Made by a program: the position numbers and the translations under genes
The notes under the pieces: model-generated
Told to the model about the DNA's origin: nothing
Database searches by the model: none
What the model saw: the letters and a program-made list of their open reading frames with translations, nothing else
Assembly: GCA_963826115.1 (NCBI GenBank)
Contig: CAWGVS010000012.1
Span: forward strand, 704,001 to 768,000
Direction of reading: 5' to 3'
DNA: 64,000 nucleotides
Origin: an uncultured Candidatus Rokubacteria bacterium
Lineage (GTDB): Bacteria > Methylomirabilota > Methylomirabilia > Rokubacteriales > DASRDR01
Shown: piece after piece, positions 28,490 to 35,334 of the stretch
Layout of the letters: the number at the start of each line of letters is the position of its first letter
Numbering within the stretch: position 1 is the first letter of the stretch

Positions 28490-28578
28490 GGAGGGGTGGC
28501 CGAGCGGTTGAAGGCGCCGGTCTTGAAAACCGGTATGGGCGCAAGCCCTCGGGGGTTCGAATCCCTCCCCCTCCGCCA
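28490..28578 (+). tRNA. tRNA-Ser(TGA)
   Basis: GGAGGGG/CCCCTCC stem, CCGGT-CTTGAAA-ACCGG, long variable arm, TTCGAAT, CCA. Confidence 0.97.
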
Positions 28579-28648
28579 TCCGCGCGCCCGCGACGGCCCG
28601 CCGAGTTGACAAAGATTCGGCCCGCCCGGAAGATGGGGCGCTGCGCAT

Positions 28649-28742
28649 GGAGAGGTGGCCGAGTCGGCCGAAGGCAACCGCCTGCTAAGCGGTTACCGGG
28701 TGTTGAGCCTGGTCCCGGGTTCGAATCCCGGCCTCTCCGCCA
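28649..28742 (+). tRNA. tRNA-Ser(GCT)
   Basis: GGAGAGG/CCTCTCC, ACCGC-CTGCTAA-GCGGT, CCA; TTGACA at 28606-28611 upstream. Confidence 0.97.
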
Positions 28743-28760
28743 ATCTTCCAGCGGTTGGGC

Positions 28761-28837
28761 GCGCCCATAGCTCAGTTGGATAGAGCGTCGGACTACGAAT
28801 CCGAAGGTCGCAGGTTCGAATCCTGCTGGGCGCACCA
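28761..28837 (+). tRNA. tRNA-Arg(ACG)
   Basis: GCGCCCA/TGGGCGC, TCGGA-CTACGAA-TCCGA, CCA. Confidence 0.97.
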
Positions 28838-29086
28838 ATTCCGAGCCATCCTCCCACGCATCCAGGCCCCCGCCGGCGTGCCCCGGCGTCATCCGATGGA
28901 CAAGTCGGACACCCGCGCGTCCACCAGGGCGCGGAGCTTGGCTACGGCTGGGTGATCACGGGGGATCGAGAAACCGCCGGATGACGGCGCCGCGGGCCGA
29001 TCCCGAGGGGGCGTGCGTCCTCTTCGGAGCCCGCACGGTCTCCTGAAGACCGGCGGCGCAACGGGAGGCGGCCCGCGCGTTTCGGC

Positions 29087-29539
29087 CTAGCCGAGCACCC
29101 GCTCGAGCCGCCGCGCGATCTCCGCCTTCGGCTGCACGCCGACCAGCCGGTCGACCTCGCGGCCCTGCCGGAGGACGAGGAGCGTCGGGATGCTCTGGAC
29201 CCCGAACCGCGCGGCAACCCCGGGGTTCTCGTCCACGTTCAGCTTCGCCACCCGCACGCGTCCGGCCAGCTCGTCGGCCAGCTCCGCCACCACCGGCGCG
29301 ACCATCCGGCACGGCCCGCACCAGGGCGCCCAGAGGTCGAGCAGCACCGGGAGCGGCGAGCCCTCGACCTCCGCGGCGAAGGTCGCATCGGTGACCGTGA
29401 CCGGCGCCGCGCCCACGGGGAGCCGCGTCCGGCAGCGTCCGCAGCGCGGCGCCAGACCCTGCGCGACCTTCGCCCAGGGCACGCGGTTGGCGGCCCCGCA
29501 CGCCGGACACGGGATGAGGCGCGCGTCGTCGGCCGCCAT
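29087..29539 (-). CDS. trxC: thioredoxin 2 (zinc-finger thioredoxin)
   Basis: CPAC...CGRC zinc finger plus WAPWCGPC. Confidence 0.93.
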   Translation of the reverse strand: MAADDARLIPCPACGAANRVPWAKVAQGLAPRCGRCRTRLPVGAAPVTVTDATFAAEVEGSPLPVLLDLWAPWCGPCRMVAPVVAELADELAGRVRVAKLNVDENPGVAARFGVQSIPTLLVLRQGREVDRLVGVQPKAEIARRLERVLG

Positions 29540-29717
29540 CGCGGGCATTGTGCGCGCCGCTCGCACGGGGCGTCAATCGTCCGCGAGTCATTCGCGAGGC
29601 GATCGGCCCGGCGCCGAAGCAGAACGTCTACGTGCGGAGCGCCGACTCGCACGCCGCGCGGGGGACCCCCCGCGCGCCCTCCCCGAGGACCAGCGGGCGC
29701 GGGTATACTTGGCCACC

Positions 29718-30302
29718 ATGTCCTTCGGAGATACACTACGGGAGCACGGGCTGCCGGGTTCCGTCCCGCTCGGCTCGCCGTCCCCTCCGCCCGAGGCCAC
29801 GAGCGTCCATGAGCCCTTCATGCAGCTCGCGCTCGCGGAGGCGCGGCAGGCCGCCGCGGCCGGGGAGGTGCCGGTAGGCGCGGTGGTGGTCCTGGAAGGC
29901 GCGGTCGTCGGGCGGGGGCATAACCGCCCCGTCGCCACGTCGGATCCGACGGCGCACGCGGAGGTCGAGGCGTTGCGCGACGCCGGTCGGCGCGTCGGGA
30001 ACTACCGGCTGACGGGGGCGACCCTGTACGTGACGGTCGAGCCGTGCCTCATGTGCGCGGGGGCGTGCGTGCACGCGCGGCTGGGGGCGCTCGTCTTCGG
30101 CGCGCCGGACGAGAAGGCCGGGGCGCTCGTGAGCCGCGCCCGGGTGCTGGACGAGCCCGCGTGGAACCATCGCGTGCGCGTCACAGGGGGCGTGCTCGCC
30201 GCGGAAGCGGGCGCGCTGATGCAGGCGTTCTTTCGGGAGCGACGTGTGGAGGGGTACCGAAGTGGTCGCACCGGGCTCGACTCGAAATCGAGTTGGGGGT
30301 GA
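29718..30302 (+). CDS. tadA: tRNA adenosine(34) deaminase
   Basis: GEVPVGAV, DPTAHAE, TVEPCLMCAGA; start could be 29718 or 29820. Confidence 0.93.
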   Translation: MSFGDTLREHGLPGSVPLGSPSPPPEATSVHEPFMQLALAEARQAAAAGEVPVGAVVVLEGAVVGRGHNRPVATSDPTAHAEVEALRDAGRRVGNYRLTGATLYVTVEPCLMCAGACVHARLGALVFGAPDEKAGALVSRARVLDEPAWNHRVRVTGGVLAAEAGALMQAFFRERRVEGYRSGRTGLDSKSSWG

Positions 30303-30341
30303 TGAGCCCCCACGTGGGTTCGAATCCCACCCCCTCCGCCA
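30248..30341 (+). tRNA. tRNA-Ser(CGA)
   Basis: GGAGGGG/CCCCTCC, CTCGA-CTCGAAA-TCGAG, long variable arm, CCA. Confidence 0.96.
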
Positions 30342-30392
30342 TTTTTCCGTCACGGGGTGCGGCTGACGCGCCGTTGACGTCAGCCGGGCCGG

Positions 30393-30486
<94 letters not shown>

Positions 30487-30527: not shown

Positions 30528-30801
30528 GTGGCCGTGCTAGGCGGGGAGGTAGCGGTGCCCTGTACTCGCAATCCGCTCCAGCGAGGCGGAATCCCCGCCC
30601 GAGGTGCCGGCGTGTTGAATTGAGCCCCGAGGAGTGGCGATGAGGGCTGGGCCCCACGCGACGAGAATCTGCCAACCCCGCCAGGCCCGGAAGGGAGCAA
30701 CGGTCCGCAGACACTCTCGTGTGCCGTGGGATTCCCTGGCCGGAGTTATCTCCCCGGGGAGATCGCAGGACGTCGGTTATCGACGGCGGGTGCACGGCCA
30801 C
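30528..30801 (+). ncRNA. ffs: large (Alu-domain) signal recognition particle RNA
   Basis: 5' GCCGTGCTAGGCGGGGAGGTAGCGGTGCCCTGTA resembles Bacillus scRNA; helix 8 CAGGCCCGGAAGGGAGCA; termini GTGGCCGTGC/GCACGGCCAC pair; upstream of dnaX. Confidence 0.92.
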
Positions 30802-30839
30802 TTTTTCCACGACGAGCCCGCGGCCGCGCGGAGCGCCTG

Positions 30840-32633
30840 GTGAGCTACCAGGTTCTCGCGCGGCGCTGGCGCCCCCTCACCTTCGACGCGGTCGTCGGCC
30901 AGGGGCCGATCGTCCGCACCCTCCGGAACGCGCTCGCCCAGGAGCGCATCGCCCACGCGTACCTGTTTGCCGGGCCTCGGGGCGTCGGGAAGACGACCAC
31001 CGCGCGCCTCCTCGCGATGGGTCTGAACTGCGAGGGCGCGGCGGCGGGCGCCGGGCGCCCGTGCGCCACGTGCGAGCCCTGCCGGGAAGTGGCGGCCGGC
31101 CGCGCGCTCGACGTGCTGGAGATCGACGGGGCCTCGAATCGCGGCATCGACGAGGTGCGCGCGCTCCGCGAGAACGCGCGCTATGCGCCGGCGCGCGGGC
31201 GGCGCAAGGTGTACATCATCGACGAGGTCCACATGCTGACGGAGCCGGCCTTCAACGCGCTCCTCAAGACGCTCGAGGAGCCGCCGGCCCACGTCGTCTT
31301 CGTCCTGGCCACCACCGAGGCGCGGCGCCTGCCGCCGACGATCCTCTCGCGCTGCCAGCGATTCGACTTCCGGCCGATCGCGAGCGTCGAGATCGGCGAG
31401 GCCCTCCGGCGGATCCTCGCGGAGGAGAAGGTGCCCGCGGACGCCGTGGAGCCGGACGCCCTCCGGCTCCTCGCGCGGGCGGCGGACGGGAGCCTCCGCG
31501 ACGCGCTCTCGCTCCTCGACACCGCCCTCGCCTACGGGGAGGGCCGCGTCCAGGCCAAGACCGTGGAGGAGCTCCTCGGGAGCGGCGGCGCCGAGGCTGC
31601 GTGGGCGCTCGCCGGCGCGCTCGTCCGCCGAGCGGCGCCGGACGCCCTCCAGCGGATCGCCGAGGCCGCCGCGGCCGGGCTCGACCTGTCGCTCCTCTGC
31701 GAGGAGACGATGGAGGTCCTGCGCCGGGCCTTCCTGGTCGCGGTCACCGGAACGGCCGGGCCCGACGCGACGCAGGACGAGACGGCGCGGCTCACGGCGC
31801 TCGGGACCGAGGCGGGCCAGGGCGACACCGATCTGCTTCTCCTCCTGAAGGGGCTCCTCGACGCCGAGGCCGAGATGCGGAAGTCCCCGCACCCGCGCGT
31901 CGACCTCGAGATCGCCACCGTGCGCCTCTGCCATCGTCCGCAGGCGGCGTCGATCGAGACGGTGCTCGCCCGGCTCGAGCAGGCCGAGGCGCGGCTCCGC
32001 GGTTACGGCGGCGCCGCCGAGCTGGCCGCCCCCGTCCAGCCGGATCTCCTCGCGGGCCCCCCGCCCGAGCCGGCGCTCCCGCGGCCGGTGGCGGTCCCGC
32101 GCCCGGGCGAACGCATCCCGGCGCCCGCGCCGCGCGCCGCCGCCCCGCCGGTCCGCGAGGCGCCGATGCCCGGCCGCCCGGTCGGCGGCCCCGCGACGCC
32201 GGGTCCGAGCGCGCCGCCGGCCCCGCGCTCCGTGCCGCGGAACGCCGCCGAGGCGTGGGCGGCCATCGTCGCCGAGGTGATCCGCGTCCGGCCGACGCTC
32301 GGGCACCTCCTGTCGGAAGGGGTGGTGGTCGACGAGGCGGAGGGCCGGCTCACCGTCGCGGTGCCGAACGGCAGCGCGTTCGTCAGCGATCAGCTGAAGA
32401 AGGCGGAGAACCGGGAGCTCGTGCTCGAGACGGCGCGGCGCGTCCAGCCCGGGCTCCGCGACGTGGCGTTCACCGCCGGCGTGCCGGCGGCGAGCGTGCC
32501 CGGCGGGACGCATCCGGTGGTCCAGGCCGCGATGGAGTTGTTCGAGGGAGACATCACCCAGGTCCGACCCGCTCCCGGCGCGCGCCCCATCGCGGCCGCC
32601 GAGCCGGCGGGCGGCGGCGGGGAGGCCCCATGA
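30840..32633 (+). CDS. dnaX: DNA polymerase III gamma/tau
   Basis: SYQVLARRWRP, GPRGVGKTT, EIDGASN, IIDEVHML, SRCQRF. Confidence 0.98.
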   Translation: MSYQVLARRWRPLTFDAVVGQGPIVRTLRNALAQERIAHAYLFAGPRGVGKTTTARLLAMGLNCEGAAAGAGRPCATCEPCREVAAGRALDVLEIDGASNRGIDEVRALRENARYAPARGRRKVYIIDEVHMLTEPAFNALLKTLEEPPAHVVFVLATTEARRLPPTILSRCQRFDFRPIASVEIGEALRRILAEEKVPADAVEPDALRLLARAADGSLRDALSLLDTALAYGEGRVQAKTVEELLGSGGAEAAWALAGALVRRAAPDALQRIAEAAAAGLDLSLLCEETMEVLRRAFLVAVTGTAGPDATQDETARLTALGTEAGQGDTDLLLLLKGLLDAEAEMRKSPHPRVDLEIATVRLCHRPQAASIETVLARLEQAEARLRGYGGAAELAAPVQPDLLAGPPPEPALPRPVAVPRPGERIPAPAPRAAAPPVREAPMPGRPVGGPATPGPSAPPAPRSVPRNAAEAWAAIVAEVIRVRPTLGHLLSEGVVVDEAEGRLTVAVPNGSAFVSDQLKKAENRELVLETARRVQPGLRDVAFTAGVPAASVPGGTHPVVQAAMELFEGDITQVRPAPGARPIAAAEPAGGGGEAP

Positions 32634-32947
32634 AGGGATTCGGGAATCTCGTCAAGGAAGCCCAGAAGCTCCAGGCGCAGCTCGAGGCGCTGAAGGAAGA
32701 GGTGGGAAAGAAGAAGGTCGAGGCCTCGGCCGGCGGCGGGATGGTGGTGGTCGAGGCCAATGGTAACCAGGAGCTGGTGTCGATCCGGATCGACCGCGAG
32801 GTGGTGACGCCCGACGATCCGCAGATGCTGGAGGACCTCGTCCTGGCGGCGGCCAACGAGGCGCTCCGCAAGGCCCGCGAGCTGGTCGCGGGCGAGATGG
32901 CGAAGGTCACGGGGGGGCTGGGCGGCAAGCTGCCCGGGCTCATGTAG
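32630..32947 (+). CDS. ybaB: YbaB/EbfC nucleoid-associated protein
   Basis: AQKLQ...ASAGGGMV...[13 protein letters not shown]; lies between dnaX and recR. Confidence 0.95.
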
Positions 32948-34015: not shown

Positions 34016-34306
34016 ATGGGGCGCATGCTGGTCGAGTGGGCCGAGACGCTCCTGTTCCTCCTGGCCGGGGGCGTCCTGATCGGCGCGGTGGCCCACCTCC
34101 TCGGCTGGCTCCTCGCCCGGCGGCGGACCGCGGAGCTCGTGTGGCGGGCCTGGAACGTGCTCGGCGCCCTGCTCCTCGGGATCGGGATCCTCGGCATGGG
34201 GTACGCGTGGGTGGAGCTCGGCCTCCAGTCCGGCTGGGGGAGCCTCCTCCTCGGCCTGGGGCTCCTCCTCGCCTCCGCCGGGCTCTGGATGCTCGTCCCG
34301 GTCTAA
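34016..34306 (+). CDS. small hypothetical membrane protein (about 3 TM)
   Basis: 96-aa hydrophobic ORF. Confidence 0.7.
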   Translation: MGRMLVEWAETLLFLLAGGVLIGAVAHLLGWLLARRRTAELVWRAWNVLGALLLGIGILGMGYAWVELGLQSGWGSLLLGLGLLLASAGLWMLVPV

Positions 34307-34360
34307 GCCGCGGGCGCGAGGTTCCGCCGCTCGCGCGGCTGGGTTACAATGCGCGGGCAT

Positions 34361-34697
34361 TCCCCGGTAGCTCAATTGGTAGAGCACGCGGCTGTCGAGT
34401 CGGCAGCGTCCCGGCCGAAAGGCGGGATGGAAAAGCGGGTGAATTCAGGGAACCCTACGTCCGCGAGGATAGGGGAACCCTGAGCGAAGCCCTCGGGCGG
34501 ACGCCGCCCGGGGGACCGTGCAGAGACTAGACCGCAAGGTCGTACTCCGGGGCCCGGGTCGCGGGCGCCGGGGGAAGCGCCCGCCCCCTACGGACGCCCG
34601 ACGGGCGTCTACGGGGATGAGATAGTCCAAGCCCCGCGGAAACGCGGGGGCCCTTGTAACCGCGGGGTTGCAGGTTCGAGACCTGCCCGGGGAGCCA
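34361..34697 (+). tRNA. tRNA-Asn(GTT), intron-containing; exons 34361-34395 and 34657-34697
   Basis: Joined exons give a 76-nt cloverleaf TCCCCGG...CGCGG-CTGT^TAA-CCGCG...CCGGGGA-G-CCA; -10 TACAAT at 34345-34350. Confidence 0.92.
34396..34656 (+). ncRNA. group I self-splicing intron (261 nt)
   Basis: P1 with U-G wobble, GAATTCAGGGAA / AACCCTGAGC (P/Q), CAGAGACTAG / GAGATAGTCC (R/S, P7), GAAA-capped P9, terminal G. Confidence 0.92.
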
Positions 34698-34767
34698 ATC
34701 GCCCGAGGGCCGTCGGCGGTGACGCCGGCGGCCTTCGTGCGTCCGGGGGGGCCGGAGCGGCCGACCG

Positions 34768-35334
34768 TCAGCGCGCGGGCGCGCCGCCGATCAGCGCGGG
34801 CGCCGTGGTGACCGTCGCGAGGAACCCGTTCAGGCTCCCGAGGTGTGTCCGGTGCACCTGGTCGTGCGGCACCACGACCCCGTCGGGTCCCTTGACCGAC
34901 ATCGCGGCCATGGCATCCGAGGCCATGAGGACCTTGAAGCCCCGATGGGCGGCCTCGCGCGCGGTGGTGTCGCAGCACATCTGCGTCATGAACCCCGAGA
35001 CGATCACCTGCTCGATCCCGTGCCGGCGGAGGTGCGCCTCGAGGTCGGTGTTGGTGAACGACCCGGGCAGGTGCTTGGTGACGACGGGCTCGCCCGCGGC
35101 GGGCCGGGCGGCCGGATGGATCTCGAGGGCCGGACTGCCGGGCGCGAACGTGGTGGGATTCGGGCGCCGGCTCTCGTGCACGACGTGGACGACCGGGACG
35201 CCCGCGCCGCGCGCCCACGTGAGGAGATCGGCGATGCGCTCGACGGCGGCGGGGCCGCCGGGGAGGACGACCTTCCCAATCGGCGCGAAGTACTCCTGCT
35301 GAGCGTCAATAACGAGAAGCGCCGTCCTGTCCAT
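34768..35334 (-). CDS. isochorismatase-family cysteine hydrolase
   Basis: ALLVIDAQ, KHLPGSF, GFMTQMCCDTTAR. Confidence 0.93.
   Translation of the reverse strand: MDRTALLVIDAQQEYFAPIGKVVLPGGPAAVERIADLLTWARGAGVPVVHVVHESRRPNPTTFAPGSPALEIHPAARPAAGEPVVTKHLPGSFTNTDLEAHLRRHGIEQVIVSGFMTQMCCDTTAREAAHRGFKVLMASDAMAAMSVKGPDGVVVPHDQVHRTHLGSLNGFLATVTTAPALIGGAPAR

Follow-up and report, generated by a model that had tools for sequence, protein, structure and literature searches.

The sole tRNA-Asn(GUU) gene in a Candidatus Rokubacteria genome is split at anticodon position 35/36 by a group I intron

A split tRNA gene was analysed in a stretch of 64,000 nucleotides (the window) from an uncultured Candidatus Rokubacteria bacterium of soil. 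The gene consists of two tRNA-Asn exons on either side of an insert, the boundaries of all three being read directly from the sequence (Table 1). When the exons are joined by their coordinates, ARAGORN returns a single tRNA-Asn(gtt) with a span of 1-76 and a normal cloverleaf, and the anticodon of the joined tRNA matches the tRNA body (Asn, gtt) once the insert is removed. The insert lies between anticodon nucleotides U35 and U36, within the loop C-U-G-U/U-A-A, and a rule-based search of the locus (L002) gives only one solution with U(-1), G(omega) and a 7-nt anticodon loop. Compared with tRNA-Asn genes of the same order that have no intron, the exons show 84-90% identity. An earlier note on this DNA had proposed that an intron splits tRNA-Asn(GUU) at 35/36, and the 76-nt tRNA-Asn(gtt) obtained on joining agrees with this.

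The upstream neighbours of the gene are ybaB and recR, and downstream, on the opposite strand, lies a gene of the isochorismatase family. recR is also upstream in 17 other loci of the family (L003-L019) and in L023, and is not upstream in L020 or L021. The -10-like hexamer TACAAT is found at the same spacing in all 19 loci of the family (f1, L002-L020; TAGAAT in L014), and L021, from family f5 of the same order, has TAGAAT at this spacing. The relatives likewise have a hairpin 3' of the CCA, with sequence changes in both of its strands. A consensus scan identified no full sigma-70 site and no T-run terminator; the hexamer and the hairpin may act as promoter and terminator. Elsewhere in the window, four tRNA-Ser and one tRNA-Arg (28490-30485) are followed by a large bacterial SRP RNA (30532-30797, 173.7 bits). 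This RNA is overlapped by a 742-aa ORF (30719-32947) in which the only domain is a C-terminal YbaB, and which is probably an over-extended call.

Table 1. Features of the intron-bearing tRNA-Asn gene, in window coordinates. Counts of cells and of compensatory (both-sided) changes refer to 58 aligned introns.
Feature	Position	Strand	Details
Putative promoter, -10-like hexamer TACAAT	34345..34350	+	10 nt upstream of the tRNA 5' end
tRNA-Asn exon 1	34361..34395	+	35 nt, 3' end CTGT; acceptor 5' strand, D arm, anticodon-stem 5' strand, C32 U33 G34 U35
P1	34391..34407 (34391-34397/34401-34407)	+	exon GCUGU and intron CG against internal guide CGGCAGC, 7 bp
Group I intron	34396..34656	+	261 nt, first nt C, last nt G, without own ORF; RF00028 match, RNAalifold, RNAfold, covariation
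P2 hairpin	34410..34426	+	GAAA loop, one bulged G; compensatory 5/6 pairs
P3	34435..34441 / 34578..34584	+	99.8% of cells paired; both-sided changes in 3/7 pairs
P4 enclosing P5/P5a	34445..34483 (P4 34445-50/34478-83; P5/P5a 34453-34475)	+	GCGA loop in P5/P5a; 92.7% paired, 7/14 compensatory
P6 and P6a hairpin	34484..34521	+	P6a covaries in 9/9 pairs; also RNAalifold, RNAfold
P7 5' strand	34523..34529	+	G, bulged A, GACUA (34525-29); pairs with 34623-34628
Extra hairpin 1, P7.1 position between P7 and P3'	34530..34541	+	GCAA loop; 3/4 compensatory, 85% of cells paired
Extra hairpin 2, P7.2 position between P7 and P3'	34545..34573	+	both-sided changes in 11/11 pairs, 84% of cells paired
P8 hairpin, internal loop	34585..34616	+	outer 4 pairs 98% paired, 2 compensatory; inner part variable, poorly aligned
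P7 3' strand	34623..34628	+	UAGUC (34623-27) and C
P9.0 enclosing P9	34629..34655 (AAG 34629-31/CUU 34653-55)	+	P9.0 covaries in 3/3 pairs, 99.4% of cells paired
P9	34632-34649	+	GAAA loop; compensatory 5/7 pairs
Terminal G (omega G)	34656	+	last intron nt, directly 3' of the P9.0 3' strand
tRNA-Asn exon 2	34657..34697	+	41 nt, 5' end TAACC, 3' end encoded CCA; U36 A37 A38, anticodon-stem 3' strand, variable loop, T arm, acceptor 3' strand, discriminator, CCA
Terminator-like hairpin	34708..34733	+	GC-rich, 11 bp, then UUCG; without U run

The Rfam Intron_gpI model (RF00028) aligns over model positions 1-253, which correspond to 34385-34649, with 35.3 bits and an E-value of 1.9e-7 (461 nt searched, 34300-34760, with E-value reporting). 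In a search of the whole genome the window locus is the sole match to this model (E 6e-7). The score is below the Rfam gathering score of 50, so the curated threshold is not reached, and a default Rfam scan of the window at gathering thresholds lists no intron. According to Williams 2020 (bioRxiv 10.1101/2020.01.27.920355), the Rfam seed contains no bacterial sequence, and a threshold of 18-20 bits was used there. The match is beyond chance, because the minimum free energy fold (RNAfold, -156.2 kcal/mol) has a z-score of -4.72 against 200 shuffles and reproduces all nested helices, and because covariation is strong. The full-length model match, the fold and the covariation together uphold the earlier identification of the insert as a group I intron.

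RNAalifold, applied to 21 relatives, recovers the tRNA arms, P1-P6, both extra hairpins, P8 and P9, with compensatory changes in 21 of 91 pairs. Covariation was then counted in an alignment of 58 distinct Asn-site introns of up to 285 nt, 18 from relatives and 40 from public loci, on an explicit structure that includes the P7 pseudoknot and P9.0. Standard pairs occupy 92.4% of the 5928 cells. The shuffled mean is 79.6%, none of 500 shuffles reaches the observed value, and when the partners are slid only 36-47% are paired. Both-sided changes are present in 68 of the 107 pairs. The core helices P3, P4, P5, P6 and P8 are all backed by such changes; P7 is complementary yet invariant. The public loci were found by two P7-region motifs, after which a filter on U(-1), G(omega) and the match to the guide was applied. 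That P7 and four P1 pairs do not vary is hence in part a product of the selection and provides no covariation evidence. The acceptor, D and anticodon stems of the tRNA are preserved throughout the 58 sequences, with covariation in all four of the anticodon-stem pairs counted.

The pairs of P1 are all standard and include a U34395·G34403 wobble that marks the 5' splice site. All 58 sequences preserve this U·G together with the four exon pairs, in part because of how they were selected, and the first intron pair of P1 covaries (AU 22, CG 19, GC 10, GU 4). P7, which is expected to be the guanosine-binding helix, forms six standard pairs in a pseudoknot with P3, invariant in 58 of 58 of these motif-selected sequences. 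The earlier note had named P1, P4, P7, a GAAA-capped P9 and a terminal G; all lie where it placed them, and the pairs that it listed are standard. The 46 nt between P7 and P3' are an insertion relative to the Rfam consensus, within which extra hairpin 1 lies. There is no P5abc-type extension. No convincing P10 pairing of exon 2 with the P1 loop can be drawn from the sequence. The 261-nt intron contains no homing-endonuclease ORF, nor any ORF of its own, and the two ORFs that overlap it (34036-34530 on the plus strand and 34445-35218 on the minus strand) have no Pfam family.

The P2 loop is GNRA-like throughout the alignment. The internal loop of P5 (34453-34475) is CCUACG...AUAGG in the window and exactly CCUAAG...UAUGG in L058 (alignment columns 107-155), a loop that we take to resemble the 11-nt GAAA-tetraloop receptor. 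The GAAA loops on P2 and P9, together with the receptor-like P5 loop, suggest loop-receptor docking.

The genome assembly is of 6.24 Mb in 12 contigs, with 99.09% completeness and 5.3% estimated contamination. Of 64 tRNAs called by ARAGORN in the whole assembly, none is a tRNA-Asn, and blastn with the two exons in turn detects each of them at this locus only, genome-wide. The genome-wide check for another tRNA-Asn that the earlier note had called for thus finds none. As that note had also expected, standard scans miss the gene: ARAGORN in default mode calls no tRNA at the locus, and the Rfam tRNA model has no match there at its gathering score. With its intron option ARAGORN calls a tRNA-Pro(cgg) with a 243-nt intron, which is wrong, and explicit joining of the exons was preferred. 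The same genome has one tRNA-SeC(tca), one 'tRNA-Pyl'(cta) and three tRNAs with irregular anticodon loops among the ARAGORN calls. Since there is no other tRNA-Asn in the genome, splicing must work for AAC and AAU to be read. The note had reasoned that splicing would be essential if this were the only Asn tRNA; a sole tRNA-Asn was found, from which we infer that its splicing is essential.

The sequence 34361-34697 was compared by BLAST with 40 relatives. The gene occurs at full length, intron included, in 18 of 20 genomes of the family (13 of 14 from the same genus and 5 of 6 from other genera), at 76-93% identity. For the other two, G012 and G019, there is no match to either an intron-bearing or an intron-less tRNA-Asn, which is to be read as not assembled or not found rather than as absence. 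Maximum-likelihood analysis of the 58 sequences places the family in a single clade (17 rows, support 100/98). L039, titled Methylomirabilota, nests inside the genus, and three loci titled Rokuibacteriota/Methylomirabilota are the sister of the family clade (99/98), a placement that makes the organism a bacterium of the Rokubacteria type (Methylomirabilota under the newer name). The intron and the tRNA gene are inherited vertically together within the family. In the order as a whole the distribution is patchy, with an intron-less tRNA-Asn in at least six genomes (G022, G030, G033, G036, G039 and G040). Outside the family but within the order, an intron is found in two genomes, G024, where it is of another sub-type located elsewhere in the tree, and G025, where it is cut by the contig end. 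A second, divergent intron-bearing tRNA-Asn was seen in a genome of the same genus (G002, contig C188; L023 504-833, minus strand). It is 68% identical and groups with Binatia-titled loci (99/98). Rather than a second copy of the gene, it probably represents a contig binned in error.

The steps proposed for splicing are based on established group I chemistry, from which we infer both the reactions and their order. The gene would be transcribed as one short unit. The guide at 34401-34407 would base-pair to the 3' end of exon 1, so that U35 lies in a U·G wobble, and free guanosine bound in P7 would attack after 34395. The terminal G34656, positioned by P9.0, would then occupy the same site, and the freed 3'-OH of U35 would attack after 34656, giving ligated exons with the loop CUGUUAA.

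Six RNA runs matched, with small shares (0.11-0.18), and contigs from four soil metatranscriptomes (X15, X16, X17 and X19) were mapped on the region. Those of X16, X17 and X19 cover most of the intron. The 5' junction is bridged by one contig (X15 record 1) and the 3' junction by another (X19 record 30), both of them unspliced, which could be precursor RNA or carried-over DNA. The contigs of the four metatranscriptomes contain no spliced joint of the window lineage, a result that speaks neither for splicing nor against it. Some loose contig ends leave the sequence after 34395 and read on into TAACC; their anticodon stems are different ones, and they were assigned to the tRNA-Asn of other organisms, spliced or intron-less. 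The two joints listed in RNA contigs belong to other tRNAs. Contig depth is about zero in 34300-34347 and low beyond 34700 in X16, X17 and X19, and the uncovered parts are taken as no evidence. In X17 contigs adapter-like letters adjoin 34402 and 34698.

It is possible to read the insert as derived from a group I intron that no longer splices itself, being removed with the help of a host protein (a maturase or chaperone) or surviving as a decaying remnant in a dead tRNA gene. The sub-threshold Rfam score, the lack of a spliced junction of the window lineage in the RNA contigs and the lack of an evident P10 all lean this way. A dead gene, however, would be the only tRNA-Asn of its genome, would have been kept family-wide at 76-93% identity and would carry compensatory changes in every variable helix as well as in the tRNA stems. 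Loss of self-splicing is considered improbable, although it fares best among the alternatives, and dependence on a protein is conceivable. Removal by a protein endonuclease and a ligase, in the manner of archaeal bulge-helix-bulge introns, is very hard to credit: the location in the anticodon loop is one that protein-spliced tRNA introns share, but the insert has a full group I core with covariation, its boundaries follow the U(-1)/G(omega) rule, and the tRNA-splicing endonuclease family tRNA_int_endo (PF01974) has no match in this 99%-complete genome, whereas the control search was positive in four of four archaea. Equally little weight is given to an assembly chimera, or to chance tRNA-like halves around unrelated GC-rich sequence, as the contig number and estimated contamination of the assembly might allow, given that the same arrangement occurs independently in 18 other genomes of the family and at dozens of public loci, and that the stretch is present in metagenome and RNA-library contigs from several studies.

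The group I intron is thus confirmed from its sequence as real and structurally well supported, and its splicing activity is predicted. Taken as a whole, 34396-34656 is very probably a functional group I intron in the sole tRNA-Asn(GUU) gene, spliced by the proposed ribozyme route and inherited vertically within the family.

The window intron shares many properties with the classical bacterial tRNA introns, those of Ile2(CAU) in Azoarcus and the Burkholderiales, Arg(CCU), Leu(UAA) and fMet. These are likewise small, without an ORF and located in the anticodon loop, with a U(-1)·G in P1 and a terminal G, and GNRA loops on P2 and P9 are common to both. In its core strings the window intron agrees with those of tRNA(CAU) and Arg(CCU); the strings of the P7 region are identical in at least 32 tRNA(CAU) loci, mostly titled Burkholderiales and relatives, and in at least six cyanobacterial tRNA-Arg(CCU) loci. 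The window intron differs in its host, tRNA-Asn(GUU), and in its site, which is after loop nucleotide 4 (35/36) and not after nucleotide 5, 3 or 2. It also differs in having two covarying hairpins between P7 and P3', where the tRNA(CAU) and Arg(CCU) loci have a different element and the 205-nt Azoarcus intron, as we understand it, has nothing.

Two hairpins in domain 7 (P7.1 and P7.2) are described as a feature of subgroup IA2 in the available part of PMC4227781, and this is a likeness to the IA2 ribozymes of phages and IStrons. Compared with IA2, the window intron lacks the extended P9.1/P9.2 domain, having a single P9 and P9.0, its core strings are of the tRNA-intron type, and its host is a tRNA rather than a protein-coding gene. 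P5abc is stated to be absent in subgroup IC3 in the part of PMC11835236 that is available, and the database cited in Williams 2020 (bioRxiv 10.1101/2020.01.27.920355) places all four classical settings in IC3.

The four classical settings, Leu, Arg, fMet and Ile2, were extended by 17 more in Williams 2020. These settings are the same kind of object as the window intron and were mapped in the same way, with the exons setting the boundaries and with U(-1) and G(omega); in those terms the window intron would be 'Asn.4Ug'. 'Asn' is absent from the running text of that paper, outside which lies the table of the 17 types (an image), and its data set dates from January 2017. In the accessible part of the tRNAscan-SE 2.0 paper only the fMet and Ile2 cases are mentioned. 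No bacterial tRNA-Asn group I intron is named in the literature found, the coverage of which stops short of Table 1, Fig. 3 and the supplements of Williams 2020. The 'group I introns' of 22-49 nt in cyanobacterial Arg, Gly and Lys tRNAs that are reported in the available part of PMC5733544 are not relevant here.

A two-motif pattern scan of 185,579 species genomes identified at least 120 loci. The spacing of the pattern (75-105) favours introns with a long segment between P7 and P7'. A first exon finder, in which ARAGORN was applied to 26,442 joined candidates, gave too ambiguous a result, and its place was taken by a rule-based finder that uses the T arm, acceptor and anticodon-stem pairing, U33, U(-1), G(omega) and the guide match. 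It left 20 of the 120 listed loci unsolved, which were read by eye. Among the matches listed, tRNA-Asn is split at 35/36 in at least 62 loci (about 76 including those judged by eye), with titles from more than 10 phyla. The rule-based finder assigned at least 60 loci to tRNA-Asn with CTGT/TAA, and a further two with an ambiguous second solution, as well as at least 32 loci to tRNA(CAU) with CTCAT/AA and at least six to tRNA-Arg(CCU) with CTCCT/AA. By eye, at least 14 loci have tRNA-Asn halves that are truncated, masked or ORF-bearing, at least five are tRNA-Leu(UAA) with CU/UAAAA, and the host tRNA of one locus among the matches listed is unclear. The Leu loci with these P7 motifs (L069, L105, L119, L131 and L146, with Myxococcota/Deltaproteobacteria titles) are tRNA-Leu(UAA)-like, with a split that follows loop nucleotide 2, whereas in the classical Leu setting it follows nucleotide 3.

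The titles of the Asn loci include Rokubacteria/Methylomirabilota, Aminicenantes and other Acidobacteriota, Ignavibacteriota/Bacteroidota, Binatia, Deltaproteobacteria/Desulfobacteraceae, Elusimicrobia, Nitrospiraceae, WOR-3, Gemmatimonadota, Actinomycetota, a Thermostichales cyanobacterium and Paceibacterota, the last being a locus (L147) in which the Asn 35/36 arrangement was judged by eye; the earlier note had linked introns at this site mainly with Patescibacteria. Doubts attach to some of the titles ('uncultured Eubacteriales', a Klebsiella MAG and a Woesearchaeota MAG), and six of the listed loci are duplicates of relatives already counted. Owing to these titles, the duplicates and the selection by spacing, the counts are presence data and not frequencies. 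The earlier description of the organism as an unusual host for this site does not hold, because carrying the intron is normal in this lineage (18 of the 20 genomes of the family) and the same Asn site is occupied under the titles of many phyla.

Asn-site introns were also found on contigs titled as a Woesearchaeota archaeon (L144), Pseudomonadales (L126) and a Klebsiella pneumoniae MAG (L061). L144 and L126 group on long branches, and the flanks of L061 are nearly identical to those of the Deltaproteobacteria-titled L141; the three titles are probably binning errors. The same suspicion was raised for a Pacearchaeota case in Williams 2020 (bioRxiv 10.1101/2020.01.27.920355). Eight Asn-site introns from other phyla (L033, L043, L047, L056, L084, L096, L103 and L133) have an ORF in the P1 loop, upstream of the guide sequence, with a Cys-x2-Cys ... 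His-His ... Cys-x2-Cys-His ... His pattern. The ORF of L043 (1358-1843, minus strand) has a weak Pfam HNH match (E 0.0018, 18.8 bits, below the cut-off of 21.4). The ORF-bearing introns would be a mobile, homing-endonuclease-bearing form of the same intron family.

It is conceivable, if rather unlikely, that the Asn 35/36 introns are a distinct, old and largely vertical lineage, maybe undescribed, that combines a tRNA-type core with a covarying two-hairpin domain between P7 and P3', at a position otherwise described for subgroup IA. Their retention across whole families as the sole route to tRNA-Asn would then suggest that GTP-dependent splicing serves as a control point for its supply. The intron itself is ordinary in kind. 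It belongs to a widespread Asn-site family and changes nothing with regard to the group I principle; its interest is moderate and comes from the domain-7 hairpins, together with its use for annotation. The 58-sequence alignment provides a well-supported secondary structure, including P9.0 and the two domain-7 hairpins, for a compact (about 250-260 nt), GC-rich ribozyme family.

Unless the mapping of tRNAs is intron-aware, genomes of this lineage and, from the scan, of many uncultivated phyla will be annotated as being without a tRNA-Asn, and such false absence distorts statements on tRNA complement and completeness. For the organisms themselves, the decoding of AAC and AAU would depend on a ribozyme reaction, and those anticodon-loop modifications that need an intact loop could presumably be added only after splicing.
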